Below, piece after piece: positions 126-22,335 of a DNA stretch of 64,000 nt. The position numbers and the translations under genes are program-made. The stretch is from a virus: positions 13,299-77,298 of the IMG/VR virus record IMGVR_UViG_3300010397_000003. One strand, written 5' to 3'. A model generated the notes under the pieces. The model was not told where the DNA came from and did no database searches. It saw only the letters and a program-made list of their open reading frames with translations. The number at the start of each line of letters is the position of its first letter. Within the stretch, counting starts at the first letter, position 1.

Positions 126-194
126 TTACCCTCGCGCGGAACGCGCTCACGATCTCCCAAAGCACCGAGCCTCTTAAATCACCCGTGGTTTCAA
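126..194 (-). repeat. Cassette L end (L0)
   Basis: TTGAAACCACGGGTGATTTAAGAGGCTCGGT, then hairpin GCGCG-TTC-CGCGC, then GAGGGTAA-ATG; matches the other L ends. Confidence 0.75.
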
Positions 195-772
195 TCTCTA
201 AATTCAACCTTCACGACGCCGAAGCTCTTGTACTCGCGAGCGAAGGCAGCGACGTTCTTTCCAAAGTAAGTGACGACGCTTCCCTTCGACACGCCTTTCT
301 TGATCGTTCCATCCGGTAAGCGATAGTTGGTTCGCGGAACCAGAGAACACTGAGGAAGCCTTGCGAGCGGCTGAAACCAAGCCTCGGATGTTGCCGCGTA
401 AGTGATATTGCAGGCTTCGACCGTGCGGCCTTCGTAATACTCGCGTACAAGTTTTGCGATCCACTTTGTATTGCCGTGGTAAGGGTAGGCGTGGTGGATA
501 TGCTCTTTAATGCACGATGCCCCACACGCTTCCTCCGCGCGACCGAATGGATGATTGAGCCAGATGCGCCCATGCCAAAGCCGGGCAAGTCCGTCATCTT
601 GCGCGGTGAAGATCCGCGTTGCCTTGACGATTCGATTCGCGTTCTCGCTACTCGCCGGATCAAGATCGATTCCGCCCATAACACGGCGCGCGGCCTCAAC
701 GATCTCGACGGGTGTGTAATATTCGACTTCGCCAGAGGTTTGATTAATAAGCTGATGTGCTGCTACTACCAT
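191..772 (-). CDS. Phage DNA N6-adenine methyltransferase (Dam-like)
   Basis: YYTP..IVEAAR..MGGIDLDPASS, DGL..WHG.IWLNHPF (NPPY-like motif) and T...WFQ.L motifs; likely start ATG at 772. Confidence 0.8.
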   Translation of the reverse strand: MVVAAHQLINQTSGEVEYYTPVEIVEAARRVMGGIDLDPASSENANRIVKATRIFTAQDDGLARLWHGRIWLNHPFGRAEEACGASCIKEHIHHAYPYHGNTKWIAKLVREYYEGRTVEACNITYAATSEAWFQPLARLPQCSLVPRTNYRLPDGTIKKGVSKGSVVTYFGKNVAAFAREYKSFGVVKVEFRD

Positions 773-818
773 TTCTGCTCTTTCCCATACTGCACAGTCT
801 CCATTAAGTCTTGAAGGG

Positions 819-1169
819 TTACTCACTGCTCGGCCACCAACGCAAATCTTCATTCCCGATCTGCGAGCTATACACACGATGAATCTTCCGCAAGTCTGCT
901 AATCGTTTCGCCAGCACGTACCGATCAAGAGTGCCGAGTCCCGCAAGTTCCTTACTCGTTTTCCCTGGATACTGTGTGACTAATTCCAACGTCATTTTCG
1001 TTTGTCCTCGCAGCGCTCCGCTTCGTCTGAGTTCTTGCTCGGCCCGGTGTGAACTTTTCGGGTCCGTGTTCCGGCTGAGTTGCGGTATGTACTCATCGTC
1101 TTTCAGTGGAGGCGCGGTTGCCGTTCCTCCAAAGAAGCGATCAAAGTCTAAAGATGATTGAGCGTTCAT
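819..1169 (-). CDS. Hypothetical winged-helix protein
   Basis: SR.TDP.SSH.A and PG.TSKELA...KRLADL pattern common in phage early regions. Confidence 0.55.
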   Translation of the reverse strand: MNAQSSLDFDRFFGGTATAPPLKDDEYIPQLSRNTDPKSSHRAEQELRRSGALRGQTKMTLELVTQYPGKTSKELAGLGTLDRYVLAKRLADLRKIHRVYSSQIGNEDLRWWPSSE

Positions 1170-1374
1170 GCTGCGACTGTCTTAACCCGCGTTATCACCC
1201 CTGAAGGCGCAGACCTTCTTGTGATCCGCTCTGTTCCGGTTGTCTTAAACCGTCCTTTAGAATCCAAATCATCCGAGGCGGAACGAGGCGCTAGTAATTT
1301 GTCTACACATCCATCGCATAGGCCGTCTATGCAATCCTGAGGATCGAATACTGGATGTGAACACTGAACACAGA

Positions 1375-1557
1375 TCATGCTGCGCGTCTCGTGTAAATCA
1401 TTTTCTTAGTGCAATCGCGGCAATACGCTGACGCCTTATTAGGCCGTGCGTTGCAGGCGTAAAACTGGCTAAGTGACAACCTGTTCCCGCATCCCTTTGG
1501 CGCAGGACATACCCTGCTTCGCTCTAGCCAGTGTGAATTTGAAGCGTTGAATTTCAT
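1375..1557 (-). CDS. Small Cys-rich (zinc-finger-like) protein
   Basis: C.....C..L.LSQFY....SAYCRDC; translationally coupled to its neighbours. Confidence 0.4.
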   Translation of the reverse strand: MKFNASNSHWLERSRVCPAPKGCGNRLSLSQFYACNARPNKASAYCRDCTKKMIYTRRAA

Positions 1558-2030
1558 CAGAACATCGACACATCGTCAGGGTCTTCAACCGGAACGTGAT
1601 CGCATCTTTGCGCCGGCAGTTTGTATCCTTGCGCGTCTTTTCCTTCCGGCACGTAGAGACCTGAGCCGAAACATTTCTTGCAGACATCACCGGACAGGAG
1701 ATTCGTGGTTTGCGCTAGCGCGTTTCGCTCGGAGGCGCAGAGCGAACGGAACCCCTGTATCAACTGCGGCGCGGTCAGGGTGTACGTGTTGTCGCTGTCC
1801 TGCATCGCTCTCACGTAGGCGTCAGCCAAACGATTCTCTGGTACGGCCCCTAATAGAATCTCTGACCACGTTGCGACGTGGATCATCAACTCTTCGTTTT
1901 CGAGCGGCGGCATTCCCGACGCCACGCGACTCTTAACGATTAGCTGCGCGACCGCCTGATCGTATGAACTCAAGGTTAGACCTGAGTTGATCAACTCGCT
2001 TTGCTGATGCTGAAGGTTTGCTGTTTCCAT
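1557..2030 (-). CDS. Hypothetical replication-associated protein with C-terminal CxxCxGxG
   Basis: Directly downstream of the initiator gene; CKKCFGSG motif. Confidence 0.5.
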   Translation of the reverse strand: METANLQHQQSELINSGLTLSSYDQAVAQLIVKSRVASGMPPLENEELMIHVATWSEILLGAVPENRLADAYVRAMQDSDNTYTLTAPQLIQGFRSLCASERNALAQTTNLLSGDVCKKCFGSGLYVPEGKDAQGYKLPAQRCDHVPVEDPDDVSMF

Positions 2031-3507: not shown

Positions 3508-3622
3508 AACAAAAACCCCTTAGCGAGATGCCTGGCGCTTTGGGAAGCAATTCAAATCCGAAGACAAGAATCAGTAACCAGAGCACCCCGCTAAAGGGTC
3601 TTCAGTCACGGTTGCTTCCCAA
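3508..3622 (-). promoter_or_regulatory. Structured leader with two interleaved stems and a U-tract (attenuator or pseudoknot-like)
   Basis: Perfect 11-bp inverted repeat 3540-3550/3612-3622 crosses a 17-bp stem 3515-3531/3583-3599 (three G-U pairs on the - strand), followed by TTTTGTTT-ATG. Confidence 0.6.
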
Positions 3623-3674
3623 TTCAACCGGCCAAATTGTCAACTTCATTTCTTATTCTCCATAGATTTTCAAC

Positions 3675-3857
3675 TTACGTTTTCCGGTTACCATGCCCAA
3701 CGTGATACGGCCTTGCTCGGCATCGAAACTCTGCGCAGATGTAGACATGTAACTTCAAGGGATTCTTTCGATCTGGAATCATTTCTTGCCGGCGCAGTAG
3801 TGACCTGATATGCGCCTCTGCCTTTCCCCTGGATTCGTGTCCTACTTTTCTGCACAT
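3675..3857 (-). CDS. Hypothetical protein
   Basis: C.K..H.S...A..H....Y.C..C...YHVGH pattern; RBS AGGTGAG. Confidence 0.55.
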   Translation of the reverse strand: MCRKVGHESRGKAEAHIRSLLRRQEMIPDRKNPLKLHVYICAEFRCRARPYHVGHGNRKT

Positions 3858-3858: not shown

Positions 3859-4284
3859 TCACCTGATTCCTTTTTGTGCGACCATAGGGCATTCCACGGC
3901 GTTCGTTACGTTATGGGTGCGTGGCTCGCTTTCCGCTCGCTCAGTCAGCGTTACGTAACCAAGTTTCTCTTCTTCTTTTTCGAGCCAGTCTGCAATATCG
4001 GCGCGCGACCAGCGGTGGCTATCGTTTAAGTGAATGATTACGTCAGTCATGTCCACGGCATCTTCGTCTTGGCATTGACTAACCGGACAAGTTGAAGGCT
4101 CTTTGAGGTAGGGGTATTCTAATTCAGGAACCGCAGCGCTAACGCCTTCCAGACCGCCTGTCATTGCTTCATAGCCCGCGCCTATCGCGCACGTGCTTCC
4201 ATCGCGGTACATCTGGCGAAAGGACTGCGGCCGGAGCTTCGCCCCTTCTCGAATAGCCTCACTGAACGATGCGAATAGTTTCAT
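3859..4284 (-). CDS. Hypothetical cassette cargo protein (CAIGA...LND...IADWL family)
   Basis: Start follows an L end; C-terminus reads through an R end; paralogous motifs in 13005-13337. Confidence 0.7.
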   Translation of the reverse strand: MKLFASFSEAIREGAKLRPQSFRQMYRDGSTCAIGAGYEAMTGGLEGVSAAVPELEYPYLKEPSTCPVSQCQDEDAVDMTDVIIHLNDSHRWSRADIADWLEKEEEKLGYVTLTERAESEPRTHNVTNAVECPMVAQKGIR

Positions 4285-4362
4285 TGCGCTTTACCTCTGG
4301 CCGGTTTACCGGCCCACGAATCGTTGACGTAACGAACGTCTTTAGTTGCCCTATGGCTTCAC
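3876..4362 (-). mobile_element. Putative single-gene cassette bounded by inverted repeats (R1 3876-3942, L1 4285-4362)
   Basis: Ends read inward: TGTGCGACCATAGGGCATTCCACGGCGTTCGTTACGT vs TGTGAAGCCATAGGGCAACTAAAGACGTTCGTTACGT. Confidence 0.7.
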
Positions 4363-4618
4363 ACTTCAAAAGTTCTGAGAACTCAAGAGCGAGTGTCGCC
4401 GCCTACACGACACGCTGGAGTTTCCCCGCAGTCGCCAGCGGCATGTAGCCACCGACTTCGACCGCTCTCTCGATACATTGGCCGCATCATGCCTTGGATC
4501 GACACGACAAACCGCTTAGATAGGCTTATCCACCACCTACCTGTCACCAATGAATCTCTTTCAAATATCCGTTGCGCGACGCGCCCTCAGTTGCCTTCTC
4601 ACGCCCCCCGCGCAAGCC

Positions 4619-4865: not shown

Positions 4866-5729
4866 CTAGAAGGGCACGTCGTCATCCGATTGATCGTCGC
4901 CGACAGATTTATTCAGCCGGAAGTTGTCTAGCTTCTCGCTTAACGCTTGAATCAAATCTTCTGTCTGCTCGAAGGAGAGACCGGCAGCGCCCTTGGTCGT
5001 TTCAAACTTCTCGTTCACGTACTGGTCAAGTCTGGCTGGGCTGAATGGCGGCTCGTAGCCTTCATCGTTTAGCAGCTTGCACGCGCTCCGCACGCCCTTC
5101 ATCAGCGCTTCCTTGCGCTCGGCCATTAGATTGCCCTGCGGCGGCTCAGAGGCCGGAGAATCGCCCAGGATGACGTTGTGACGCTGCGCGTCAATGCAGA
5201 CCGTAGCGAAGCAGGCTTGCTTGGCCTGATCGTCCACAAGGTTCAAAGCAGTAATGAGTTCAATGGCAACATCGGCACAGCCCAGAAGGTGCGTCTTAAA
5301 ACTTTCGGCGTCGTATCTCTGTGGCGCCGAATACTCTACGCGGGTGTCAGGCTTGTGACCGTTCCCGTTCGATTTGGCCGGCGCAGTTGTTCCGTTTCCG
5401 TTCTGCCATTCCCACTTGGCCGAGCCCGTAACAACGATCTGATCGAAGGTCTTATCTCTGTATTGCTCATGCTGAACGCTAAGACCTGTCAGTCCGTGCT
5501 GCTTTGAATGGTTCGCTTTGAGTATGACCGTTTGCCCGGCCTTATCGTTTCCGACAGCATCGACATTCTTTAGTTTTAATCGCCCGCCACCGGCCAGTTG
5601 TAGTGTTTGAAACGACCACGGGCCATGTTCACCTTCGCCCGATTTTCGCTCGTAAACTTTGTCGATCTTTACTGTCACCTCTGGCGGCGTGAACCCGTCT
5701 GGCTGCTGTAAAATTTCTTGTAAATCCAT
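4866..5729 (-). CDS. Putative single-stranded DNA-binding / recombination protein
   Basis: OB-fold-like N-terminus, acidic DDDVPF tail typical of SSBs; next to the exonuclease gene. Confidence 0.55.
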   Translation of the reverse strand: MDLQEILQQPDGFTPPEVTVKIDKVYERKSGEGEHGPWSFQTLQLAGGGRLKLKNVDAVGNDKAGQTVILKANHSKQHGLTGLSVQHEQYRDKTFDQIVVTGSAKWEWQNGNGTTAPAKSNGNGHKPDTRVEYSAPQRYDAESFKTHLLGCADVAIELITALNLVDDQAKQACFATVCIDAQRHNVILGDSPASEPPQGNLMAERKEALMKGVRSACKLLNDEGYEPPFSPARLDQYVNEKFETTKGAAGLSFEQTEDLIQALSEKLDNFRLNKSVGDDQSDDDVPF

Positions 5730-5737: not shown

Positions 5738-6415
5738 TTATGCGGCTCGCTTCTTGAGCCTTTTGTCGATGTCGTACGCTTCTCGAAAGAGAATAAACTG
5801 ACGCCAGCCATCATCAAGATTCTCGAAATAGTGATGACTAAAATCTGCTTCGTCGCGGCTGAATCGGCATAGATGGAATCCGCCCTCGATTGGCTGATCA
5901 GGGAAGTTTTCTTCCCAAAGAGCTTTGTACGCCGCTACCTGTACCAAGGCATCCCGATAGATAGCCGATGAAGTTTTCCAGTCTGCGAGGCTTCGTACGC
6001 CGTCAATTTCCACAACTGCGATTCCGTCAAACGTGCCGCCGAATTTATACTTCTCAGACACTAGGGCCATTTCCGTTTTGACCACCGAGAGTTTCGTGGT
6101 TCGTTCCCAATTCAAATAGTTTTCATAGGCGCGGTTCGCTCTTTCCAGAATCTCCGGCGAAACCTTTTCCGCTTCAATCATCGCCGTGATTTCCGCGTCA
6201 GACTTTCCGGTGATGTGATACTCGACTAGCGCGTGGGCGATGGTTCCAGCTTGCGCGGCGTCGTCCTTCGTCTCGCGGAAGTCGAACCCGTTGCGACCCT
6301 GATCCCAAGCCCAATAGATGATGCCGCCAGAGTCCTTAAAGCGTCCGATGATGGTCGTGACGCCAGGGACTTTTGTGCCGTCCGCGAGGTGATATCCGCC
6401 TTTAGGCCGCGACAT
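5738..6415 (-). CDS. PD-(D/E)XK phage exonuclease
   Basis: PGVTTII, AA..GT..H..VE, FGGTFD, DWKTS, Q.AAY motifs. Confidence 0.85.
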   Translation of the reverse strand: MSRPKGGYHLADGTKVPGVTTIIGRFKDSGGIIYWAWDQGRNGFDFRETKDDAAQAGTIAHALVEYHITGKSDAEITAMIEAEKVSPEILERANRAYENYLNWERTTKLSVVKTEMALVSEKYKFGGTFDGIAVVEIDGVRSLADWKTSSAIYRDALVQVAAYKALWEENFPDQPIEGGFHLCRFSRDEADFSHHYFENLDDGWRQFILFREAYDIDKRLKKRAA

Positions 6416-6529
6416 TTAACGCCTCCACTTGCTCCCGACGCTCCACTGAATCCGCCCAGACGCACATCTCGCATCTGCACGTCGCTGAATCGTGAATACC
6501 TGTCATGTTCGGCGCTTCATTCATCTCTC

Positions 6530-6919
6530 TCACACTCCACCAGGGACTATGCGACTCACAATTCCATACCTAAATGCTTCAATTCTCTCCGTCCGGTTCA
6601 GCCGCCAGCAGATCAACTTTTCGTTCATCCCCGGCCGATTCTGATTTCGCCGATCTATCGTGACGACTCCATTGATCGCTTCGTAGTGCGCCACGCGATC
6701 CGCTTCTTCTCTTTCTTCGTCCGTTAAGGGCTTAACTGGTATCCGAGGATCGGGCATTGCCGGAAGAATCTTGGCGATCTCTTTCTTGGCCCGCTCGGCA
6801 CCTAATCTCGTTTGGGCATAAGCGATTATTTTTTTGCCGTAGTACAAGTCCCATCGGTGACGCGGAAACGGGCCAGCAGGATTCGCGGGCAGGATGTGAA
6901 TCGACATGCTTCCGATCAT
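6530..6919 (-). CDS. Hypothetical protein
   Basis: RBS AAGGTAAAGC-AATG like the 3' part of L ends. Confidence 0.55.
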   Translation of the reverse strand: MIGSMSIHILPANPAGPFPRHRWDLYYGKKIIAYAQTRLGAERAKKEIAKILPAMPDPRIPVKPLTDEEREEADRVAHYEAINGVVTIDRRNQNRPGMNEKLICWRLNRTERIEAFRYGIVSRIVPGGV

Positions 6920-6933
6920 TGCTTTACCTTCCC

Positions 6934-7245
6934 TTAGAACGCCGTCGCAGCTTTGGGATTTGTGATATGCCCGATCCCGCTTTCCGGCTTGACTTCATCT
7001 GCGAATAGCGGCCTGAACCATGCTTGCGGGCACTCCGCGTCGATGTACTCAAGGCCGTGGCGTTTGACCGTCAACCAGAGAACGCCAAGCATTTGCGGCG
7101 GGTAGCCGTTCGCGTTATCGCTCCACTGCTGCGCCATTGATTCGTTCTCCGGCGCGGCCTTGACTCGCTCGACAACCGCATCAACTTGAGCCGGAAACAT
7201 GCCGCAGTTCGTTAGCCGTTCGCGCATTACCTGTTCAAAGGTCAT
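6934..7245 (-). CDS. Hypothetical cassette cargo protein
   Basis: ATG directly follows L2. Confidence 0.65.
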   Translation of the reverse strand: MTFEQVMRERLTNCGMFPAQVDAVVERVKAAPENESMAQQWSDNANGYPPQMLGVLWLTVKRHGLEYIDAECPQAWFRPLFADEVKPESGIGHITNPKAATAF

Positions 7246-7403
7246 CTGCTTTACTCTCGCGGTTTACCGCTTCGATTCGTTGACGTGTCGGACGCCTTGA
7301 GAACTACCTTGGGCCTCAATCCCTGAATCCTATTTGTCAAAGCCTCGGGCATTCATGGACGCCCGTTTCTATCTGGGTGCGTGGCTCACTTTTTCGCTCG
7401 CTC
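7246..7403 (-). repeat. Back-to-back R-L junction (R2 7337-7403, 17-bp spacer, L2 7246-7319)
   Basis: Two copies of the terminal repeat in inverted orientation separated by CAAATAGGATTCAGGGA. Confidence 0.75.
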
Positions 7404-8157
7404 AAGCCGCTTTCTTTTGCCTTGGAGCGAGGTCTAACCACTTACTTCCCGGCGTTTTGAATTTGATGCAGGCTTGGACGCAGATTTCAGCGGCGATATT
7501 CAGGATTTCATCGCGGGCTTTAGCTCGCGCATAAGCAGCAGCAGCATCAGCAGCATAAGCAGCAGCATCAGCAGCATAAGCAGCAGCATCAGCAGCATCA
7601 GCAGCAGCAGCATCAGCAGCATAAGCAGCAGCATCAGCAGCATAAGCAGCAGCAGCAGCATAAGCAGCATAAGCAGCACGGCACGCCTTACGGGCGTTTT
7701 CGGCGGCCTCTCGCGTGCCCTCGTTCTCGCAGCGGAGCGCGGCTTCGACAATGGCTCCAGCGTGAATTTTATCTTTGAATCTCAGCGCGGTAGCGCGAAG
7801 CGTGACGGGAAGAATCTGGCGAATCACTTGCTCCGCGAGGTGCATCACGAACTCTTTACGGAGTTGGCGATTCTCAGGCAGGTCAAGGAACTCGCTTCCA
7901 AGTTGAGCGATCGCCGCGCGTCTCATCCCTGCGGTTCGGGCCGCATTACTTGACCACGCTGCATCGTTGATTCGGATTTTGTATCGCCGGATGCAATTCG
8001 CTACGCACTCCGGCTGATCGCCGTGCGGTAATTCGAGCGCATAGCAGATGGCCGCTTCAACGCACATCTTTCCCGGCTTCGCGACGCCTAAGCCGGACAC
8101 AAGACCAGCATCCACGACCCCTAAAACCTTCCGCGCATGGTTTTTGGTTAGCTTCAC
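7402..8157 (-). CDS. Hypothetical cassette cargo protein with Ala-rich AAYAADAA tract
   Basis: GTG at 8157 after AAGGAG; CVEAA.....LPH.D.P.CV motif; lies between L8 and R2. Confidence 0.7.
   Translation of the reverse strand: MKLTKNHARKVLGVVDAGLVSGLGVAKPGKMCVEAAICYALELPHGDQPECVANCIRRYKIRINDAAWSSNAARTAGMRRAAIAQLGSEFLDLPENRQLRKEFVMHLAEQVIRQILPVTLRATALRFKDKIHAGAIVEAALRCENEGTREAAENARKACRAAYAAYAAAAAYAADAAAYAADAAAADAADAAAYAADAAAYAADAAAAYARAKARDEILNIAAEICVQACIKFKTPGSKWLDLAPRQKKAA
7528..7677 (-). repeat. Coding trinucleotide-like repeat (GCT/TAT/GAT codons)
   Basis: About 150 bp of agc/ata/atc units on the + strand. Confidence 0.9.
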
Positions 8158-8216
8158 CGTCTTTCTCCTTCGCCGCAAGGCGGCCCCACACTCTTTACTA
8201 AAACGGGCGTCTTGAT

Positions 8217-8441
8217 TCACCCTTTGGCTTCAGCCCTGCGGTTCGTGCGGTGTTTTAGGTATTCGCTAGCCCTGAACAGTCCCGCGATTCCTGACGCGAT
8301 CTGCTTCCGGTAATTCTTGAAAGAGAACGCCGGAGCCTGACCGGGTTTACGCTGTTTGTTGTCGCCGTACCTGTTACACCGAGTCCCGACAAACATTTCA
8401 GACTGGTTCCGCTTGATGTTTCTGATTGATGTTCCGTTCAT
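8217..8441 (-). CDS. Hypothetical basic protein
   Basis: Likely ATG at 8441 after AGAGGG; its stop lies inside L8. Confidence 0.45.
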   Translation of the reverse strand: MNGTSIRNIKRNQSEMFVGTRCNRYGDNKQRKPGQAPAFSFKNYRKQIASGIAGLFRASEYLKHRTNRRAEAKG

Positions 8442-8631
8442 GATTTTTCCCTCTATGTCCGTATCCGTACTGTCAATCTCACCTGACTTCCGCCGACATT
8501 TCACGTAACTTTGAATCTTGACGATTTTCTTGCTTTAGGCTTAACCTCAGTCCACTAAGGAAAACCCCTATTCCCCCATGCCCGCGTTTTCGGCTGCGAC
8601 TTTCAGGCAGCCTTAATTTGGAGCAAACGAG

Positions 8632-8814: not shown

Positions 8815-8821
8815 CGGCCTA

Positions 8822-8851: not shown

Positions 8852-8896
8852 TAGAAATTATTTAGGAAGATAAATCTAGCAGAGGAGTCTTAAGAG

Positions 8897-9459: not shown

Positions 9460-9471
9460 GCTTCAAAGCCC

Positions 9472-13926: not shown

Positions 13927-14500
13927 ATGAAGCCCAACGGAGGATCGCGGCGTTCGTTAATTCAATGATCGTGAGCCGCCTTGCGGCAAAAGGAAAAGCA
14001 AAATGAGCGAGAAATGTGAAATCGGCGCGCACTACGTTGTTGGATTCATGTTCAGCGCAGACCTTCGGTTTGTTCTATTAGTGCTAAAGAATCGTCCTGA
14101 CTGGCAGCGCGGAAAGCTTAACGGCGTTGGCGGTAAGGTTGAAGAAAACGAGTCACCGGATCAAGCGATGAGCCGTGAGTTCTTAGAAGAGGCCGCGATT
14201 GACACCGAGGACTGGCTGCGCTTCGCAACGCTTGGTGATGATCGTGGATGGATCATTCATTTCTATTACGCGAAGGGCGACATCAACAAGGCAAAAACCG
14301 TGACCGACGAATCACTGATGATGTTTCCGCTCTGGAAGGTGTCGAGTGATACGACGCTAATTCCCAACCTTACGTGGCTGATTCCAATGGCTCTAAGTAT
14401 GCAGAAAGAGCGCTGCGATTACTTTCAAATTACCGAGCAGCAAATATTTGAGCCACGAACGCAGGATTAACTGACGCCGCCGAATGCCCTTTGGTTGCAG
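13927..14500 (+). mobile_element. Putative cassette (L5 13927-14002, R4 14449-14500)
   Basis: ATGAAGCCCAACGGAGGATCGCGGCGTTCGTTA, hairpin GCCGC-CTT-GCGGC; TGAGCCACGAAC...CTGACGCCGCCGAATGCCCTTTGGTTGCAG. Confidence 0.7.
14003..14470 (+). CDS. NUDIX hydrolase
   Basis: GGKVEENESPDQAMSREFLEEA Nudix box. Confidence 0.9.
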   Translation: MSEKCEIGAHYVVGFMFSADLRFVLLVLKNRPDWQRGKLNGVGGKVEENESPDQAMSREFLEEAAIDTEDWLRFATLGDDRGWIIHFYYAKGDINKAKTVTDESLMMFPLWKVSSDTTLIPNLTWLIPMALSMQKERCDYFQITEQQIFEPRTQD

Positions 14501-14509
14501 AAAAAGAAA

Positions 14510-14860
14510 ATGCCGAAACGAATTCAACGGAGCCGCAAGAAGGGATCGCGATTGCCCTACGGGACAGTTTGCCTAACGCGGCCCGGCCCCTATGGAAATC
14601 CTTTCAGAGTTGGGATGTGGTTTCGCAAGATCACCTCGGACTGGAAAGTGTGGACAAGGGGTAACAGTCCTGCGTTTGGCAATCAGCAAGTTCGCGATTT
14701 AGAGCATTCGCTGGAATTGTTTGACGAGTACGCAGAATGTCGTATCAAGTGGCAGCCTGATTGGCTCAACCCGATTCTCGACAAAGACTTCTGGGCGTGC
14801 TGGTGCCCGCTCACTTCCAAGTGCCACGTTGACACTTACCTCAGACTGGCGAACCAATGA
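14510..14860 (+). CDS. DUF4326-like protein
   Basis: MPKRIQR.R.KG, V...RP..YGNPF, ACWCP....CH.D motifs. Confidence 0.8.
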   Translation: MPKRIQRSRKKGSRLPYGTVCLTRPGPYGNPFRVGMWFRKITSDWKVWTRGNSPAFGNQQVRDLEHSLELFDEYAECRIKWQPDWLNPILDKDFWACWCPLTSKCHVDTYLRLANQ

Positions 14861-15420
14861 AACGATCACCCATAGGCCCAAAGACGTTTGCAGAAGCCCT
14901 AGAGAAGCGTCTAGCGCAGCCTCAGAAGCCGCGTAAGCGTGGTTATGAATGGAAACGTCCGCGCAAAGCTCTGGACTTCAAGGGAAGAAAGCGTCTCACG
15001 TCACGCCGGCCGAACAAGGGCAAGACTGTAGATGGCGATTCGCCTAGGGCGATCAAGGACGAATGCGATCAACTTGTGCGGGACATTATCGCGTTGCGTG
15101 ATTGTTCCTGTGTCACATGCAACCGAGGGGATCGAGTACTTCATGTGGGCCACTTGTTCAGGCGCGGCCTTGAATCTGTCCGCTGGAATCTCTTGAACTG
15201 TAACGCGCAGTGCGACCCATGCAACGTGATTCATGAAACAGAACCGCTTCACTATCAAATGTGGTTCAGATTCGTTTACGGCAACGTAGCTTATGACGTG
15301 TTGGAAATCGCAAGCCGAAGCAAGCACAAATTCAAGTACATCGAACTAGGCGAGATCCGCGACGGGTTGCGAGCGGAACTGAAGCGATACGAAGCAGCGC
15401 AGAAAGCGAGAGCAGCATAG
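14857..15420 (+). CDS. ninG: NinG/Rap-family recombination endonuclease
   Basis: I.LRD..CVTC....H.GH..RR....RW...NC.AQC..CN. Confidence 0.8.
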   Translation: MKRSPIGPKTFAEALEKRLAQPQKPRKRGYEWKRPRKALDFKGRKRLTSRRPNKGKTVDGDSPRAIKDECDQLVRDIIALRDCSCVTCNRGDRVLHVGHLFRRGLESVRWNLLNCNAQCDPCNVIHETEPLHYQMWFRFVYGNVAYDVLEIASRSKHKFKYIELGEIRDGLRAELKRYEAAQKARAA

Positions 15421-15780
15421 ATGGATAGAGATATCGTCAACACACACGATCAGTTGCGCGCGGCCGGTGGCGGGGTTGCTATCGTCCCGACATATACAGG
15501 CACTCGAACTCAATATCCCTACGGTTGGGGTATCTATCGAATGGGTGCCGACGGAAAACAGATCGTCACTGATTCAAAAGCGCATTGGGCTGATTACGGC
15601 AAGAAGATATTCTCGCACAACAGGCACAAAGGGACGCCCGCCGAATGTAAGCGGCTATCGCTTGAAGAAGCAAAGCGGTGGGTTGCCGAGCAGGGATGGT
15701 ATGACGGCGAATGGAAACGCAACCGAATGCGCGACTATGTTCCGGCTGAAATTAACAAGAGGTTTCCACTTTCCAAATGA
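15421..15780 (+). CDS. Hypothetical protein
   Basis: Abuts the ninG stop. Confidence 0.55.
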   Translation: MDRDIVNTHDQLRAAGGGVAIVPTYTGTRTQYPYGWGIYRMGADGKQIVTDSKAHWADYGKKIFSHNRHKGTPAECKRLSLEEAKRWVAEQGWYDGEWKRNRMRDYVPAEINKRFPLSK

Positions 15781-15846
15781 CGGCAGTTTGCAGCGCGTGT
15801 TACCGGCGGAACTCGCTGTTTCGAGTCCCAACCGAAAAGAAACGAA

Positions 15847-15909
15847 GCGAACGGAAGTGAGCCGGACAAGTGAGATCGACTGACGCCCGTGAATGCCCTT
15901 GGGTTTCAA
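15847..15909 (+). repeat. Cassette R end (R5), followed by a partial L end at 15940-15968
   Basis: GCGAACGGAAGTGAGCC...CTGACGCCCGTGAATGCCCTTGGGTTTCAA. Confidence 0.7.
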
Positions 15910-16068
15910 AACAGAAAATGATTTGCGCAGATTTGAATGTTGAAGCCACGGAAGACTTAGGGGATGAAATGAAAAACTTAGACTTTGCGATTTTCTTTGT
16001 TGGTTCGATTTGGGCGATCGCTTGGGCTATTGTCCGCGTCGTTCAGACTCGAAGCAAGATGTAGGGGA

Positions 16069-16570
16069 TCGAAACCAAAGGGAGTCTAACGACGCCCGTA
16101 TCTTGAAAGTTTGTGGGCCGCTCTGCGGCGAGGGGAGAAGATGGCGCTAGATTGCAAAACTGTTTATTACGACGGCGGCAGCATGGTCGTTGGCTGTGGT
16201 TCGCAGCCTTGCAAATGCGGACATCTAGCCGCGTTGTTTGAAGAGGATCATGAGGCGATCTTCGCCGAACTGGAAGCGGAACTAGCGAAGCCGTTACCCG
16301 CTGATTACGTGCCAAGTGGCCAAGAGTGGTGGGACTGAATGGCGACCAAAACACCCAAACATCTCAAGCTATCGAAAACAATGCTGGCGCAGATTGCCGC
16401 CTATGCTCAGGACTGCGAAGAGGCCGGATGGTACTACGGAAATAGGGCCGAGTTCTGGAAACGCCACAAGGCGATTAAGGCGTGGCTCAAGCAGGAAATC
16501 TCCGCGCGAGCGAAAAGCTCGCCACGAATCCACGCTAAAACGGACGCCGTGATCGGCCCTATGGCTTCGA
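16069..16570 (+). mobile_element. Putative two-gene cassette (L6 16069-16140, R6 16506-16570)
   Basis: GATCGAAACCAAAGGGAGTCTAACGACGCCCGT vs GATCGAAGCCATAGGGCCGATCACGGCGTCCGT; hairpin GCCGC-TCT-GCGGC. Confidence 0.7.
16141..16338 (+). CDS. Hypothetical cassette cargo protein
   Basis: ATG directly after the L6 RBS. Confidence 0.55.
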   Translation: MALDCKTVYYDGGSMVVGCGSQPCKCGHLAALFEEDHEAIFAELEAELAKPLPADYVPSGQEWWD

Positions 16571-16581
16571 TCAAAGAATGA
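16339..16581 (+). CDS. Hypothetical cassette cargo protein; reads through R6
   Basis: Abuts the previous stop; tail encoded by the R end. Confidence 0.55.
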   Translation: MATKTPKHLKLSKTMLAQIAAYAQDCEEAGWYYGNRAEFWKRHKAIKAWLKQEISARAKSSPRIHAKTDAVIGPMASIKE

Positions 16582-16614
16582 TTTGAGGAATGATTTGAGA
16601 GGAGAGCTAAGAGA

Positions 16615-16842
16615 ATGGCTGAGATTCAACTTACAGTGACGGAACATGATGCCATTCGGCAACTTCAAGCCCTAGCGCAAGCGTGGCCGTCATCACTGTG
16701 GCTATTCTCCGCAAGCGGCTCGCTTCATGTTATGCGCAAAGTGAACGGCAAGCGAATGATGAACAAGCATGATGGCGGGATCGACGCCGATTACGTGGTT
16801 GAGACAATCAAAGGCATCGACAACGACGGAGGTGACTGGTAG
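16615..16842 (+). CDS. Hypothetical phage protein ending DGGDW
   Basis: WP.SLWLFSASG.L.VM...I.NDGGDW. Confidence 0.65.
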   Translation: MAEIQLTVTEHDAIRQLQALAQAWPSSLWLFSASGSLHVMRKVNGKRMMNKHDGGIDADYVVETIKGIDNDGGDW

Positions 16843-16844
16843 CA

Positions 16845-17192
16845 ATGCCTGACAAATCCACCACAGATAAAGACCGCAAACGAGCCGAGACGCAAATACG
16901 TGTAGCAGCCGCAGAAATGTACGACTTGTTGCCGCTTGGTGTCTACGAACGTGTAATCAAGCGCATGGCTGAGGCCGCCACTACCTTTGCATCTGAAGTA
17001 CGAGCAGAACAAAAGATTCCGTCGTGCGCAATCTGCGGCGGCGGTCGCGTGTCGATTCGTGGTCGATTCCCACGCGATCCACAACGCGAGGTCTGCCCGA
17101 CCTGCGTCACTGAGAGGCTTGAGCAGATTCACGAAATCGCAAGCATGGAATATGGTGCTGCCGCTGCGATTCGTAACGAGGTAGAACCATGA
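16845..17192 (+). CDS. Hypothetical zinc-finger protein
   Basis: CAIC...CPTC. Confidence 0.55.
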   Translation: MPDKSTTDKDRKRAETQIRVAAAEMYDLLPLGVYERVIKRMAEAATTFASEVRAEQKIPSCAICGGGRVSIRGRFPRDPQREVCPTCVTERLEQIHEIASMEYGAAAAIRNEVEP

Positions 17193-17665
17193 CAGTAAAA
17201 CAAGTTCCAGCGAAGTACCAAGCATCGGACGGCGTAGAGTTCGACAACGAAGAGGAAGCCAAACTTCATGACGAACTGATTACGGCGCGGAAAGAATACG
17301 ATGAGGCCCGAGGCAAGTTCAGCCGCGCCGTGGCTGCAACTCAAAAGACGGCGGACGGGGAGCTGTTCGATTTTAGAGGTGGCGAGTTTTGGTACGTCAC
17401 CGACTATTACAATCAAGAGCCGCGGTTGAAGCGCGTTTACTTTCTCGGTTGGAATTTTGAGGTAACCGAGTACGGCGACCGCGTTGAAATTAGCCAGGAC
17501 GAAACGGACGGTAACAACCGTCAACAGCGTCACTCCTACCCGATAAACAAACTCTACACAACTAAACGACGAGCATCTGAGGCGCTTGTTGGCGCTCTTG
17601 AATCGTGGGCAAACGAAGTGCGTCGGACTGTTACCGAAACACAGGACGAATTGAGACGATCATGA
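17189..17665 (+). CDS. Hypothetical protein
   Basis: Y.ASDG.EF....EA..H N-terminus; ATGA coupling. Confidence 0.6.
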   Translation: MTVKQVPAKYQASDGVEFDNEEEAKLHDELITARKEYDEARGKFSRAVAATQKTADGELFDFRGGEFWYVTDYYNQEPRLKRVYFLGWNFEVTEYGDRVEISQDETDGNNRQQRHSYPINKLYTTKRRASEALVGALESWANEVRRTVTETQDELRRS

Positions 17666-17910
17666 CTGACAGCAAAGCTAAATCAAAATCAGAAGTAGCA
17701 CGTAACATTGCCCGTACTTATTCTGAGGCCGCGCTGATCCCATTGTGTGCCAGTCAAATTGAACTAGCGATTGCTAATGCAGAGTCTCAACTGGCTGAAG
17801 AGGTGCTGAGAGAGATTGCCAGTTTAGAGGAACGAACTGCTTATGCTGTTTATGTTGGCAAACGGCTGCGCGAGTTATTCGCCAAGTTGAATGTGAAGGT
17901 GGAGGGGTAG
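17662..17910 (+). CDS. Hypothetical protein
   Basis: ATGA coupling at 17662. Confidence 0.5.
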   Translation: MTDSKAKSKSEVARNIARTYSEAALIPLCASQIELAIANAESQLAEEVLREIASLEERTAYAVYVGKRLRELFAKLNVKVEG

Positions 17911-17913
17911 AAG

Positions 17914-18204
17914 ATGATCGTTGAAACAACGCAGAAGGTTGATCCAGAAGTCGCCAGCGACATGCTAAATGGGCTGGCGCGGCTTGATGGGTTTATTTGC
18001 GGCTACGTCCGAATAGATGCCAAGCAGTTCACGTTGGTCACTCTCATTCAATGCAAAGACGGCGACGTGGGGCGCGGGCAGCGTGAAGTGCGATACGTCG
18101 AAGGCCGCGAAGGCGCAAACGACTACCGCAACGCCAAACGGTTTCAGGATGAAGTCAACGAACCGCCCGCACCGTGGCAAGGCAACTTTATCGAGGTTTT
18201 GTGA
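17914..18204 (+). CDS. Hypothetical protein
   Basis: RBS GGAGG. Confidence 0.5.
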   Translation: MIVETTQKVDPEVASDMLNGLARLDGFICGYVRIDAKQFTLVTLIQCKDGDVGRGQREVRYVEGREGANDYRNAKRFQDEVNEPPAPWQGNFIEVL

Positions 18205-18267
18205 GCGCAACATATTTACTTCTGTATGACCATTATGAGCCAGAACCTTCTAAAAAACTCTAAGCAA

Positions 18268-18289
18268 GGGAGTCAAGTATATAATTCCC
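18268..18289. repeat. Orphan IS1595-type terminal inverted repeat
   Basis: GGGAGTCAAGTATATAATTCCC shares GTCAAGTATATAATT with the reverse complement of the 22953-22977 TIR. Confidence 0.65.
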
Positions 18290-18601
18290 TTATTTTAAGT
18301 AATCCACGCCAAGAGATACGCCTTTTCAGGAAGCCGGATTGGGCATTCAAAGGCGATATATCGACCTTCAAGACTAACCGTTGGGCAGAAATGATCACAG
18401 GTAGCAAACACTACCGCCGCCATTGGGACGATGATGATTTTGATGCACTGATAGCTCTGTCATTCACAGATAACGGGCGGTTCTTGTGTGAGTGCGGCAG
18501 ATTCTTTGACGAGCCGTTTGGCGCTTCAAATCACGGTATTTGGCAAATGCACTGCCCGCACTGCGGAGGTAGAAGTTATAAAGAACCCGAGGGAGTTAAA
18601 G

Positions 18602-19435
18602 ATGCGCGAACAGACTAGTGAGCCAGCCAAGAGATCGTGCCGAGAGTGTGGGGAGCGAAGCTGGCATTTAGTCGAATGCCCACTGAATACGGAAGGCGCG
18701 AGTCGTCTCTATGTCTCAGACTCTGAGCGCGTCCCTGAACCAGTACCCAACCGGCACGCTTTCCAAGAGCCGGGAGGCGGCCTTGTTGGTTGTTTCAAAG
18801 CTCACCGTGGTCAACCAAAGGATGCAACGGTTCACGCTGCACCACAGAAAGACGAAGCCGAGAGTTTAGGAGTTGAGGCGCAGAAGGTTTACACACAACC
18901 TTTTTTGCGGGCTGCTACACGAATTGTGAAAATATTTCTTTCGCCTCCCGCAGACGAGCGGGCGATTAAGAGCGTCGCGGCCATAATGGAGCAGGAATGG
19001 AACCGAGCAGCGCCCACCTCAGCCCAGAAGTTAGGTTGTGCCGCTCACGGATTCAAGTTTCGAGAAGGCTGCGATGCTTGTGAATCAACTGCCTCAGCCC
19101 CAGCAGGGCCGGAACTCAAGCAAGTGGTTCAGAAGTTTTTAGATGATGAATGGTGCGGTGTATTGAATGAATATCAGCGCCGCCACATCGCTAAGGAAAT
19201 CGAATTCCAATGGGAGTTAGCTAAACTTCGTGCCACCCATGCACCAACAGAGCCAAGTGTAGAGCCAACGATTCGAGTCAGAGCGCAGTGGTTCATTGAC
19301 CACGAGAAGGATCAACACCTTGACCATGCCTGCTTTGAGTGTACAGGCGACGAAGCTACGAAGCGTCACGGATTCACTTGCTACTTTCATCAGGCGGTGG
19401 CTGCTGTCCGTGAGCATTTCCAAAAAGGAGAATAA
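18602..19435 (+). CDS. Mosaic hypothetical protein with several small Cys/His modules
   Basis: Likely ATG at 18602 after GGGAG. Confidence 0.5.
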   Translation: MREQTSEPAKRSCRECGERSWHLVECPLNTEGASRLYVSDSERVPEPVPNRHAFQEPGGGLVGCFKAHRGQPKDATVHAAPQKDEAESLGVEAQKVYTQPFLRAATRIVKIFLSPPADERAIKSVAAIMEQEWNRAAPTSAQKLGCAAHGFKFREGCDACESTASAPAGPELKQVVQKFLDDEWCGVLNEYQRRHIAKEIEFQWELAKLRATHAPTEPSVEPTIRVRAQWFIDHEKDQHLDHACFECTGDEATKRHGFTCYFHQAVAAVREHFQKGE

Positions 19436-19736
19436 GTAAATGTCAGGACTGTGGAGAAACGATTCAGAGACGCCAGAAGGCAAGTATCCGATTGTGCCGC
19501 GGCGGGACGGGAGGAGTCACAACTATGAATGAGTCACCCACACCGCCAGAGCGAATCACGTCGCCCGTACCTGATGAACTGTGCCCGCACGTGGAATTAG
19601 GAGAAGAGATGGCTGGCGGTTTTGTCTTTGATGCCGAGAGTCCAAAAGTAAGCGTTGGCATGTGCGAGGTTTGTTTGGCGATCTGCCGCGCTGAATTCAT
19701 TACCGCTGAACCGTTCAGCCTGTACAGGAGAGAGCA

Positions 19737-20111
19737 ATGAGCGAGGACTTTGACAAACTAAAAGCGCGTAAAGACATGCTAGTTCAACGCGAACGAGAAA
19801 CCGTCCGCTCCGTCTCTCCTGATGCTGACACGTTAGCCTATTGTGGCTGTGGTGATGGGTTTACGACTACAAATCCAGGTACGTGTGTTAACTGTCTCGC
19901 ATCGCTTACCGCTCCTGATGCTGGAGAGGTAGCGCGGAGAGCGGCAGAGAAGATTTGGGAGAAGTTTCGAGTTTACGATCCCGGTGCAGCAATTAACGAG
20001 ATGCAGATCGACATCTTTGCGGGCATCATTCAATCCGAACTCGCCAACGTCGGTACTCCCGATGCAGATGAGCCGCAGGATTCAGGAACCGCAACCAAAG
20101 GTCATTCGTAG
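19737..20111 (+). CDS. Hypothetical protein; C-terminus reads into L4
   Basis: RBS AGGAG; ATGA coupling. Confidence 0.5.
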   Translation: MSEDFDKLKARKDMLVQRERETVRSVSPDADTLAYCGCGDGFTTTNPGTCVNCLASLTAPDAGEVARRAAEKIWEKFRVYDPGAAINEMQIDIFAGIIQSELANVGTPDADEPQDSGTATKGHS

Positions 20112-20847
20112 ACGACCGTTCAATTACCACGACCGCTCACTAGCGTTCGCAAAGAAAAGAGGGGAGTAGCAATGGAAAGCGCAATCAGGCAGGCCGGGTT
20201 GGTGGAGTTTCCGCCGTTCATGGGTGAAAGAATTTACATGCGAGAGTTTACGAAGCGCGACGGATTGCCGTCCGATCTCTTGCGCTGGCAGTTTACGATT
20301 GATGCGATGCTTGCCGAGATCGAAACGGATGGGCCAATCTATCTGATGGTTGATCAGGGATTCGTTAACGCTGGGAATGTACATCGAAGAGGAGGCCCGC
20401 ATGTGGACGGTGCTTGGCATCCCGGCATCTCCGCGCACGGTAATCCTCGCCCGCATCACAACCCCATGCCTGAACCTCGACCCTACCCAAGACACAGCCT
20501 AAAACTCGGCGGACACGGGCATCGCTTTGACGGCTCGTCGGAGTTGATAGTTTTCGCGTCTGACGTGCTGGGGTGTCAAGCTTACGTCGGAAGCTACGAC
20601 GGCACGCCAGCAGAAGACGGAGATTGTTCGCGCCTCGACCTTAGCCGCATGACCGTTATCAACATGGAGCCGGGGCGTGTGTGGACGGGAGACGCCTTCA
20701 CGACGATCCACGAATCCGTCCCAGTACAGCACGATTGCCTGCGGACAATGGTGCGCCTAAATGCGCCGAACGCAACACGAACCTAGACCGTGCAAGCGTC
20801 GCTAACTCAGACCGTGGAATTGAGTTTTGCGACCACGTATTAACAGA
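20089..20847 (+). mobile_element. Putative cassette, subfamily 2 (L4 20089-20171, variant R end 20772-20847)
   Basis: CCGCAACCAAAGGTCATTCGTAGACGACCGTT, hairpin CGCT-CACT-AGCG; R end similar to 12866-12942. Confidence 0.6.
20172..20786 (+). CDS. Putative 2OG-Fe(II) dioxygenase-fold protein
   Basis: HRRGGPHVDG (HxD), distal IHES, R..VRL. Confidence 0.6.
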   Translation: MESAIRQAGLVEFPPFMGERIYMREFTKRDGLPSDLLRWQFTIDAMLAEIETDGPIYLMVDQGFVNAGNVHRRGGPHVDGAWHPGISAHGNPRPHHNPMPEPRPYPRHSLKLGGHGHRFDGSSELIVFASDVLGCQAYVGSYDGTPAEDGDCSRLDLSRMTVINMEPGRVWTGDAFTTIHESVPVQHDCLRTMVRLNAPNATRT

Positions 20848-20883
20848 CCAATTCCCCGTTAATGCAGATGATAAGGAGAAACG

Positions 20884-21153
20884 ATGAAAATAGAAATGAC
20901 CTTTGACGGCGTTCGTGTTGACGGAACTTTGGACGGCAAAACCTTTGCTGTTGTGCGACGCGGCGCAGAAACAAGCCTCGAAGGAATCACGGGTGATGAC
21001 ACGTTCGGCGGGATGGTCGGTTCTGCGATTCTTGACTTCGCCGGACATGTGCTTGACGGAGCCGTGATTATCATGGAAGCAACTGACGATTTGAAAGTCT
21101 GGGACAAATTGGACGACGATCTTGCGAACGAAGTTTACGACGCGATGATCTGA
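20884..21153 (+). CDS. Hypothetical acidic protein
   Basis: RBS AAGGAG. Confidence 0.55.
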   Translation: MKIEMTFDGVRVDGTLDGKTFAVVRRGAETSLEGITGDDTFGGMVGSAILDFAGHVLDGAVIIMEATDDLKVWDKLDDDLANEVYDAMI

Positions 21154-21162
21154 GGAGCAACC

Positions 21163-21471
21163 ATGACTATGACTAAACCTAATGCAGATGATGAAGCGCG
21201 GGAGATTGTTGGTGCTTTTACTTTGGAGTTAGGCCCAACACGCCGACCGCCAAAAGCAACCGAGGAAATGTTAATGCAAGTTATTGCCGCCGCTCTCACT
21301 CGCTCCCGTCAGCGAGTAGTTGAAGTCGTAAAGGCGAAGCGGGATGAATGGCAACGGCAAGCCGATATCTATGAAGCAGCCGAACATGATTCAGTGTTCG
21401 CGTTTATTAAGTTTGTCGCCGCAGCAAATGAAATTCTCGCTGAGCTAGAGAGGGGGATGGGTAATGGCTGA
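21163..21471 (+). CDS. Hypothetical protein
   Basis: RBS GAGGAG. Confidence 0.55.
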   Translation: MTMTKPNADDEAREIVGAFTLELGPTRRPPKATEEMLMQVIAAALTRSRQRVVEVVKAKRDEWQRQADIYEAAEHDSVFAFIKFVAAANEILAELERGMGNG

Positions 21472-22078
21472 AGAAGACGGAGAGTGGGGCGATATGTATG
21501 CCGACGATGGGCCACGGGATAATCAACCACAAGAACTGCTACCGTGTCCGTTTTGCGGAGAGCGGCCAGTATTGGACGACGCTGGTGACGTGCTGTGCAA
21601 AAAGACTAAATGTCTGGTTCATCCTTTTGTAATTCAAAGCGTGCGAGACGGGAAGCCGCTCAACGATCCAGTGATGGCTTGGAACGCCCGCGCTGCCTGT
21701 CCTGATGAAGTAGAAGCGCCCGACGATGAGATAGTTAAGATTCGTCATGCTTATGGCGGAACAAAGCCAGCATGGTTCAGCGAGCCTCACGCATTTGCTC
21801 AGGTCGCAACCGACATGGATCGTGTCACGTCTACGGTTGCGGCGTTGCGAGAGAGGATCGTCGCACTACAAGAAGAACGCGAGAAAGAAATGTTGGAGGA
21901 CGACGCCTCTAATCAGCCCACCGCCGCCGAAGTTGCAGCGTTACGTGCTGAGAATGAGCGGCAAGATTCGGATCATCTGATGACGGTTGAGCAATATGAA
22001 GATGAAATTACGTCGCTACGTGCTGAGAACGAAGAACTGAAACAGCGGGGCTGCGGTGAGGGAATGAGGAATGGTTAA
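21464..22078 (+). CDS. Lar-like zinc domain plus coiled-coil protein
   Basis: LLPCPFCGE...AWNAR; repeated LRAENE. Confidence 0.6.
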   Translation: MAEEDGEWGDMYADDGPRDNQPQELLPCPFCGERPVLDDAGDVLCKKTKCLVHPFVIQSVRDGKPLNDPVMAWNARAACPDEVEAPDDEIVKIRHAYGGTKPAWFSEPHAFAQVATDMDRVTSTVAALRERIVALQEEREKEMLEDDASNQPTAAEVAALRAENERQDSDHLMTVEQYEDEITSLRAENEELKQRGCGEGMRNG

Positions 22079-22283
22079 GCTAACAGACCTGTCATTGGTT
22101 CAAATCAAGCCCTTCGTTGACACGGACGGTAATCCGCGCCGTGTTTTAGAATTGGTTTTTGAGTGCGGGCAGAGAGTTAAAGTCTCACCCGAATCGTTAA
22201 TTGCCTTCGCGGAACGCGCGATTCGGCAAGCCGAAGCTGCTAAAGATAACGAGCCGTCCCGTGAACACGCCGCCGAGCGATAG
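22071..22283 (+). CDS. Hypothetical protein
   Basis: Overlap-coupled; stop lies within R7. Confidence 0.5.
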   Translation: MVKLTDLSLVQIKPFVDTDGNPRRVLELVFECGQRVKVSPESLIAFAERAIRQAEAAKDNEPSREHAAER

Positions 22284-22335
22284 CGAGTGGTCGCCTTGAG
22301 GCTTACCGAGTTACTGTGAATGCCCTGGGCTTTGA
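22273..22335 (+). repeat. Cassette R end (R7, degenerate)
   Basis: CCGAGCGATAGCGAG...GTGAATGCCCTGGGCTTTGA. Confidence 0.55.

Follow-up and report, generated by a model that had tools for sequence, protein, structure and literature searches.

Polar repeat units mark gene boundaries within the two early operons of a probably temperate soil phage

A repeat family in two divergent early arms

The window analyzed here is a 64,000-nt stretch (bases 13,299–77,298) of the 77,298-bp IMG/VR phage record IMGVR_UViG_3300010397_000003, and its two early arms carry a family of short polar repeats that lie at gene boundaries; positions are those of the window unless marked as genome positions. Both arms start from a divergent promoter region (8822–9459) with sigma-70-like sites at 8851–8822 on the − strand and 9430–9459 on the + strand, each with 9–10 of 12 matches and together the sole pair placed to drive both arms; the sign of the GC skew flips at this region. 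A preliminary description of the same DNA, made from the sequence alone, had read the repeats as left (L, upstream) and right (R, downstream) ends of promoterless, expression-ready gene cassettes that depend for their movement on a recombinase or transposase encoded elsewhere. The units are indeed promoterless: a scan revealed no sigma-70-like promoter inside any of them, the divergent pair being the only such sites. No intrinsic terminator was found in any unit; the terminator scan picked up only two L heads, weakly, and the hairpins lack a U tract. A by-eye check of the units for a sigma-54 promoter, nut-like boxA/boxB or an IHF site gave nothing convincing. The two arms are long transcription units without internal promoters or terminators, driven from a single divergent promoter region.

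The repeat family is real and, as far as could be found, undescribed. Its 31-nt motif, TGAARCCAWAGGG-N8-GRCGYYCGTT (Box1, eight variable nucleotides and Box2), is matched 10 times with ≤3 mismatches, where shuffled sequence predicts 0.01, and a search of the whole 77,298-bp genome with an nhmmer profile of the copies recovers 15 strong ones (E 5e-9 to 2e-5) and four weak ones. The copies are about 60–75% alike, with no near-identical pair, and no Rfam family matches the repeat. The coordinates first given for nine L and seven R ends proved right within a few bases, the weakest being the R at 22273–22335, in which Box2 is degenerate. Restriction to the early arms also stood, as all profile copies lie between genome positions 7,430 and 35,640 (window −5,860 to 22,340) and none in the late region, but the extent had to be widened: three copies (genome 7434, 12462 and 12509) carry the family about 6 kb beyond the left edge of the window.

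Each unit is polar and 60–80 nt long. Read from the outside inward, the head consists of Box1, eight variable nucleotides, Box2, about 13 nt and CGTG, the three boxes being spaced at intervals of about two helical turns. Over about 50 nt, L and R carry this one head as inverted copies, and their outer ends mostly read TG...CA. On both arms, L lies in sense and R in antisense relative to transcription, which agrees with the orientation rule proposed initially.

Two tails follow the head. Tail A is a 4–6-bp GC hairpin with a 3–4-nt loop, followed directly by a Shine–Dalgarno (SD) sequence. The hairpin folds at the same position in 12 of 12 tail-A units from three phages, all of them in sense. 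Seven different stems (GGCCGG, GCGG, GCCGC, GCACG, GCGCG, GGCGC and GCCGG) occupy this one position and the stem therefore covaries; individual z-scores are weak because the segments are short and GC rich. The distance from Box1 to the start codon is 68–82 nt in all nine L units of the window, and each of these start codons opens an open reading frame (ORF). Hairpin, SD and start codon at a fixed distance thus bear out the description of L as expression ready. ATGAGC continues four of 13 leaders, so some units seem to include the start codon itself.

Tail B has the form GCGAGCG-RAAAG-CGAGCC, with a palindromic form (GCGAGC-GAAA/GATA-GCTCGC) in three copies. It makes up all eight R ends and, reversed, three L ends (genome 7434, genome 12462 and window 20090). 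Outside a lone R head, an A-rich run leads into GAWTYAGG, which is the ribosome-binding site of the next gene; a similar GAWTC box precedes L. Four junctions are head to head, R to L, with spacers of 18–26 nt. Most securely, tail-A units can be described as portable leaders for translation initiation, and the family as a whole as a marker of gene boundaries within two long early operons.

Units and cargo genes along the arms

Inverted L and R copies enclose unrelated single genes, as initially described, in five places (3859–4372, 7337–8232, 10624–11444, 13928–14499 and 16070–16569), and the remaining L and R units enclose several genes or stand alone. For the cargo, the pentapeptide-repeat and NUDIX proteins (both by Pfam) and the Ala-rich tandem-repeat protein were recovered, and Pfam found no 2OG-Fe oxygenase. 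Below, units are numbered L0 and C1–C7 along the window.

On the − strand, L0 (126–204) is a tail-A unit whose Box1 starts at 193; its hairpin (GCGCG/CGCGC) and SD precede a start codon at 125. The Dam-type methylase (191–772, by Pfam) lies upstream of L0, and its stop codon is the TGA of L0 Box1. C1 consists of a tail-A L (4285–4372), with the hairpin GGCCGG-TAAA-CCGGCC and 77 nt from Box1 to ATG, a 141-aa cargo protein (3859–4284) without a Pfam family, and a tail-B R (3877–3942) that lies entirely within the cargo ORF, the last ~28 codons of which come from R and spacer; the cargo stop overlaps the next start (TGAGATG). The head-to-head junction at 7246–7403 joins an R (7337–7403) through an 18-nt spacer with GGATTCAGG to an L (7246–7319), the whole forming an ~80-nt imperfect palindrome. 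This R closes C2, in which the Ala-rich tandem-repeat protein (7402–8157) follows a tail-A L (8158–8232) with the hairpin GCCGC/GCGGC and 75 nt from Box1 to GTG.

On the + strand, the tail-A L of C3 (10624–10696; hairpin GCACG/CGTGC; 73 nt from Box1 to ATG) leads into the pentapeptide-repeat protein (10697–11407), whose ORF stops 37 nt short of the end of a tail-B R (11381–11444) with the palindrome GCGAGC-GATA-GCTCGC; an A-rich run, GATTTAGGAG and the next start codon follow. C5 has a tail-A L (13928–14002; 75 nt from Box1 to ATG), the NUDIX-domain protein (14003–14470), with an ORF that stops 29 nt short of the R end, and an R (14449–14499) in which tail B is truncated and begins at GAGCCACG. 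A lone tail-B R (15847–15908) stands behind a three-gene block (14495–15780). C6 has a tail-A L (16070–16140; 71 nt from Box1 to ATG) and a palindromic tail-B R with a GAAA loop (16506–16569), situated inside the ORF 16339–16581. The L of C7 (20090–20171; 82 nt from Box1 to ATG), first taken for an ordinary L end, is actually an R-type unit in reverse, that is, a tail-B unit, and its cargo (20172–20786) has no Pfam family. The right arm ends at 22273–22364 with the degenerate R (22273–22335), an 18-nt spacer and an L head cut after ~11 nt.

C4 is less regular. The start codon (12550) after its tail-A L (12468–12549) opens 20 codons only, and a 93-aa ORF (12599–12880) follows in another frame; a sequencing error, a leader peptide or a frameshift in the cargo gene could account for the short frame. 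The upstream Zn-finger ORF (12304–12522) ends inside the L hairpin of C4. Its sole homolog, in the related phage G002 introduced below, retains the two CxxC pairs and stops 13 residues further on; the tail of that protein resembles neither a gene split by C4 nor an unsplit one. The two 'variant R ends' reported at 12866 and 20772 belong to a separate 46-nt repeat without Box1 or Box2 (12862–12907 and 20768–20813, + strand, 78% alike). After the first copy, at 12930–12985, stand two tandem copies of ACAGAAAGATTTT, which combines the A-rich tail and GATTT box usual after R.

Pfam also identified Lar-like restriction-alleviation proteins at 11473–11841 and 21464–22078. With two Lar-like domains beside Dam-type methylases, NUDIX and pentapeptide-repeat proteins, the right early arm resembles a counter-defence island.

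The rest of the genome

The record carries a 123-bp terminal repeat. A tyrosine-type integrase of 363 aa (genome 10095–11186, left arm) is located in a lysogeny module and, together with an adjoining 153-aa ORF whose C-terminal part is excisionase/MerR-like, spans genome 10095–11652; the phage is probably temperate. TnpB without TnpA is encoded at genome 5402–6253, an RNase H-like protein at 22368–22802, and a NinG-like protein was identified by Pfam. Most structural proteins gave no family match. Within the virion gene block, a 2,485-aa protein (44905–52362, − strand) has a ddrB-like ParB domain at residues 1002–1133 and is partly shared with G002 (44% over ~380 aa).

An IS1595-family transposon of ~2.8 kb (~22947–25789) is bounded by 25-bp inverted repeats (IRs) at ~22947–22971 and 25765–25789. 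Its transposase gene (22966–24048) has its own TTGACA...TAGCAT promoter, and the element also carries a tRNA (24072–24155, − strand) and several small ORFs. The same IR type bounds a 3.8-kb element on a Mesorhizobium plasmid, which has a target duplication of 8 bp.

Occurrence in other phages

A megablast search of INPHARED phages with 14 kb and 20 kb of window sequence gave no match. Pattern scans of viral contigs recovered two true relatives only, both IMG/VR phages: G001 (62 kb), with about eight repeat copies, and G002 (51.6 kb), with two or three. In support of the preliminary reading, the family stands beside different genes in both. G001 has few early genes and no structural genes in common with the phage of the window (G000), and G002 has structural genes in common with it at 25–45% identity. 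At the protein level, all three phages have in common only an N-terminal domain of the IS1595 type, two small ORFs and portions of structural proteins. Box1 and Box2 are nearly invariant across 22 copies from the three phages, whereas N8 and the flanks vary. Because the family is so far confined to these three uncultured soil phages, few sequences stand behind the findings.

The Dam ortholog of G001 has a complete R-spacer-L junction upstream, the Dam gene of the window's phage has no unit upstream, and similarity between the two begins at codon 4. Presence versus absence of units beside an orthologous gene was thus found, but an empty site was not, nor was the same cassette at two loci, among G000, G001 and G002. 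A leader in G002 (5196–5231) retains CAACGATTCGTG-GCCGGTAAACCGGC of the window L at 4285–4361 (~75% identical), placed before an unrelated gene. G001 also shows the arrangement L-gene-L-gene-gene-R, so L and R are not obligate partners and strict pairing does not hold.

Wider searches added no further carriers. A tail-B pattern search yielded 119 chance matches and zero true ones; from a metagenome scan came G001 once more, together with chance matches and a soil family of REP-like hairpins that is unrelated; and a scan of bacterial genome contigs gave 11 matches against ~13 expected from the information content of the pattern by our own estimate. Protein-led searches with an early 180-aa protein and with a small Cys-rich protein of all three phages (11844–12113 in the window) led to one motif-free provirus and to G001 again; a 65%-identical homolog (P0002) is encoded on a contig of 24.5 kb.

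Two bacterial sequences resemble the head. A soil-bacterial REP-like palindrome (loci L027–L062; metagenome-assembled genome (MAG) G006) with the core GCCATAGGGCGTC-GAAA-GACGCCC fits the phage motif pattern, occurs in at least 37 copies in one alphaproteobacterial MAG and has flanks faintly like the R spacer. A site in an alphaproteobacterial MAG (L188 70–170; contig C81 ~32,078) has full L anatomy with zero mismatches to the 31-nt consensus, in the order stop codon in TGTGA, Box1, N8, Box2, GC hairpin with a TTCG loop, SD and GTG start; it is a singleton in its MAG, and one such match is within chance expectation. Given that chance matches are expected, homology of the head to either sequence was set aside as probably coincidence.

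A non-coding stretch at 3540–3675 (− strand), downstream of a 60-aa gene (3675–3857), is ~80–85% identical to G001 55520–55693, although the two phages are otherwise unrelated. It ends in a GC hairpin and T run and might encode a small RNA or form a terminator region that is conserved.

Pairing between heads in RNA

We tentatively favor, at somewhat less than an even chance, a reading in which the complementary heads would signal the processing or stability of RNA and the genes would become exchangeable through recombination at the repeats. The 60–80-nt units would be polar REP/MITE-like gene-boundary modules placed by recombination, with the sense tail-A unit as a portable 5′ leader and the antisense tail-B unit as a 3′ gene end that was used three times in reverse as a leader. 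Any L...R pair across 0.4–0.9 kb, or any R-spacer-L junction, could then form an interrupted RNA duplex of at least 30 bp. Host RNase III or a similar enzyme would cut these duplexes and so release single accessory-gene messages with an insulating hairpin and SD at the 5′ end. At the DNA level, placement would proceed by insertion or by illegitimate or homologous recombination rather than by a precise site-specific reaction, as suggested by the varied frames in which units run over ORF ends and by orthologous genes that have a unit beside them in one phage and lack it in another. Early genes would thereby be exchangeable without a dedicated recombinase, as with the PeSLs of T4-type phages.

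Folding predictions are consistent with such pairing. In each of the five single-gene cassettes, L is paired with R by both minimum free energy and partition-function folding, with 10–38 expected pairs; the C1 cassette folds better than its shuffles (z −2.6); and the R-spacer-L junction at 7236–7413 is predicted to fold as a long interrupted hairpin. A duplex of at least ~20 bp within one transcript, as at RNase III sites, is found here in silico only. Under this reading, the duplexes formed by the heads would probably be sites of RNase III-type processing.

Several observations weigh against this reading. The hairpin at 7236–7413 is no more stable than shuffles (z +0.56), and cognate L/R pairs are no more alike than non-cognate ones (permutation p 0.28). 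Mismatches show no bias of G-U over A-C (26 versus 31), so there is no evolutionary signature of L:R pairing; neither cognate ends nor G-U counts reveal pairing kept by compensatory change. R is often not 3′ of the stop codon, contrary to its description as a downstream end: ORFs 3859–4284 and 16339–16581 read through the whole R and ORFs 10697–11407 and 14003–14470 through part of it, and ribosomes translating R would disturb an L:R duplex. Cargo ORFs also enter R at different points and in different frames, so that the inner junctions are variable. Finally, the head is conserved in sequence and not merely in pairing potential, which would suit protein recognition better than a plain duplex.

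Alternative explanations

The alternative that survives best, itself unlikely, is that the L-gene-R units form mobile cassettes and that an enzyme encoded elsewhere, either a recombinase or a transposase, moves them, with the heads as its binding sites and the crossover in the head-to-head spacer that bears GAWTC or GAWTYAGG. L and R have the form of ~50-nt terminal inverted repeats with TG...CA mostly at the outer ends, and the conservation of the head at the sequence level suggests a protein site. GAWTC occurs in the 18–26-nt spacers of the four head-to-head junctions, and a similar GAWTYAGG box stands outside lone L and lone R. That box is also the SD of the next gene and may be conserved in that role; moreover, tyrosine recombinases cross over within a region of 6–8 bp, and the spacers are far longer. 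Units cut into ORFs (the Dam stop in L0 Box1, the Zn-finger ORF 12304–12522 in an L hairpin and cargo ends in R), one R tail is truncated, a junction stands beside one Dam ortholog and not the other and the family accompanies unrelated cargo in three phages, all of which would fit movement as cassettes. By contrast, flanks show no cassette-specific duplication (cognate sum 31 versus a mean of 31.2 in permutations), some ends stand alone and some L units are in tandem with another L, inner junctions vary and the copies are too divergent, at ~60–75% likeness, to include a near-identical pair.

Nor does a dedicated enzyme, as first postulated, find support in the genome. The integrase encoded there, at 363 aa, is of the ordinary type and adjoins an excisionase-like ORF; TnpB and a DDE transposase are encoded as well, and the IS1595-type element has its own, unrelated 25-bp IRs. 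Contigs from the probable source sample (X1, ~70×) and from the low-depth X2 show no joints at unit ends, although contigs drop rare variants and are uninformative on circles or deletions.

A second possibility, which we consider doubtful, is that a protein of phage or host origin binds the heads as double-stranded DNA, for example a regulator or, as at REP/BIME, a factor of the nucleoid or of topology, with orientation merely following the tails. Near invariance of Box1 and Box2 in the 22 copies beside variable N8 and flanks, spacing of the three boxes by about two helical turns, restriction to the early arms and use of tail-B units in either orientation would all be expected of such sites. 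A plain operator, however, leaves the start-codon distance, the covarying hairpin and the head-outward rule unexplained, and no candidate binding protein is found among the proteins common to all three phages.

Equally doubtful is the proposal that the units are selfish, functionless insertions resembling MITEs (miniature transposable elements with inverted repeats), perhaps shared with the host and sitting in non-essential early arms, the constant start distance reflecting only which insertions are tolerated. MITEs common to phages and their hosts are documented (PMC11602168) and offer a precedent. The overlap of units with ORF ends in several frames, the truncated copies and the occurrence of tail B in both orientations would also suit this proposal. 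Yet neither target duplications nor high-identity copies are seen, and bacterial genome matches occur at the chance rate (11 versus ~13 expected). The family is kept across phages with 25–45% identical proteins, and all 12 tail-A units lie in sense with hairpin and SD maintained, which points to functional selection.

A broader claim, that these phages carry a new kind of cassette system in which a phage or host enzyme recognizing the heads excises and inserts L-gene-R units through a crossover in the GAWTC spacer, maintaining a pool of ready-to-express anti-defence genes among unrelated soil phages, appears improbable. The IS1595-type transposase was considered as the cassette enzyme because it has homologs in all three phages (in G001 the N-terminal DNA-binding part only) and is rare in INPHARED (5 of 50,697 records), and it is ruled out by its own IRs, which are unrelated to the heads. 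Its presence in all three phages probably reflects a shared alphaproteobacterial host group.

Comparison with known systems

The nearest known systems are promoter-early stem-loops (PeSLs), REP/BIME and transcribed MITEs, and RNase III processing sites; by their defining features, the family is not one of integron cassettes, mobile insertion cassettes (MICs) or PeSLs. PeSL cassettes of T4-type phages comprise a strong sigma-70-like promoter and a terminator stem-loop, occur as direct repeats and form mini-circles shown by PCR (Arbiol et al. 2010, PMC2839356; Comeau et al. 2014, PMC4122927). Like them, the units described here are brief regulatory repeats, conserved and located at the boundaries of genes in early or accessory regions that are plastic, and they bracket small accessory genes of unknown function that are thought exchangeable; unlike them, they have neither promoter nor terminator, are inverted around genes and are not known to form circles.

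Likeness to RNase III sites lies in the long polycistronic transcripts without internal promoters, in ~30-bp interrupted duplexes with an internal loop and in the 5′ hairpin that remains ahead of the SD. T7 early genes have RNase III hairpins between them, and 16S and 23S rRNA are flanked by leader–trailer helices. The duplex predicted here could be local (R-spacer-L), like the T7 sites, or reach across a gene (L...R), like the rRNA helices. T7 sites are local hairpins and not one repeated family, and the units differ further from RNase III sites in the missing compensatory covariation, in R units that lie within translated ORFs and in cleavage that is only predicted.

Bacterial REP/BIME/REPIN, Correia/NEMIS and ERIC repeats influence mRNA stability or are cut by RNase III. 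The phage units share with REP/BIME elements and MITEs the occurrence of short repeats within operons, alternating head to head and tail to tail, co-transcribed and sometimes overlapping ORF ends. In contrast to REP/BIME, the phage head is not itself a conserved hairpin (only certain heads are able to fold locally), and genes sit between the tails. No RAYT-type/Y1 transposase was found among ~60 proteins scanned, a set that does not include every small ORF.

Integron cassettes and MICs resemble the units in being promoterless single genes with conserved structured or inverted ends, expressed from an outside promoter. The ends are unlike attC, as had been noted: they are split into L and R copies of a polar unit and contain no core/inverse-core pair. 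The units spread over two divergent arms, and the sole integrase stands beside an excisionase-like ORF, an arrangement unlike an integron platform; features specific to IntI were not examined. Precise boundaries and the same cassette at different loci, both typical of integrons, are not seen. From MITEs and MICs the family has the terminal inverted repeats (~50 nt) without the target-site duplication (31 versus mean 31.2) or a transposase with matching ends. The IS1595-type IRs were correctly judged unlike the heads, and TnpB elements lack terminal inverted repeats.

A further comparison concerns the start-associated sequences (SAS/ESAS) of Cluster K mycobacteriophages, which Pope et al. in 2011 reportedly described as a multi-copy element upstream of start codons with an adjoining inverted repeat. 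These too are conserved elements present in multiple copies directly before the starts of a subset of phage genes; they differ in sequence and host group and have no inverted partner copy behind the genes.

Biological significance

Early accessory regions are where phages keep fast-evolving counter-defence genes, and such genes are present here, with two Lar-like proteins, Dam-type methylases, a NUDIX protein and a pentapeptide-repeat protein. On one side of a gene the standard module provides a hairpin in the leader together with a ribosome-binding site and in some cases the start codon; the opposite side receives a complementary end. Whether the repeats act in RNA or in recombination, the family has been unnamed so far. 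If the RNA reading is true, the units would be a natural counterpart of the insulators of synthetic biology, with a processing site, a hairpin and a ribosome-binding site, and would join rRNA operons as a second case in which long-range processing stems enclose genes; if a recombinase acts on them, they would constitute an integron-like system in a virus. If the module works as proposed, one long transcript would give newly gained genes immediate expression, and unrelated phages could swap accessory genes.

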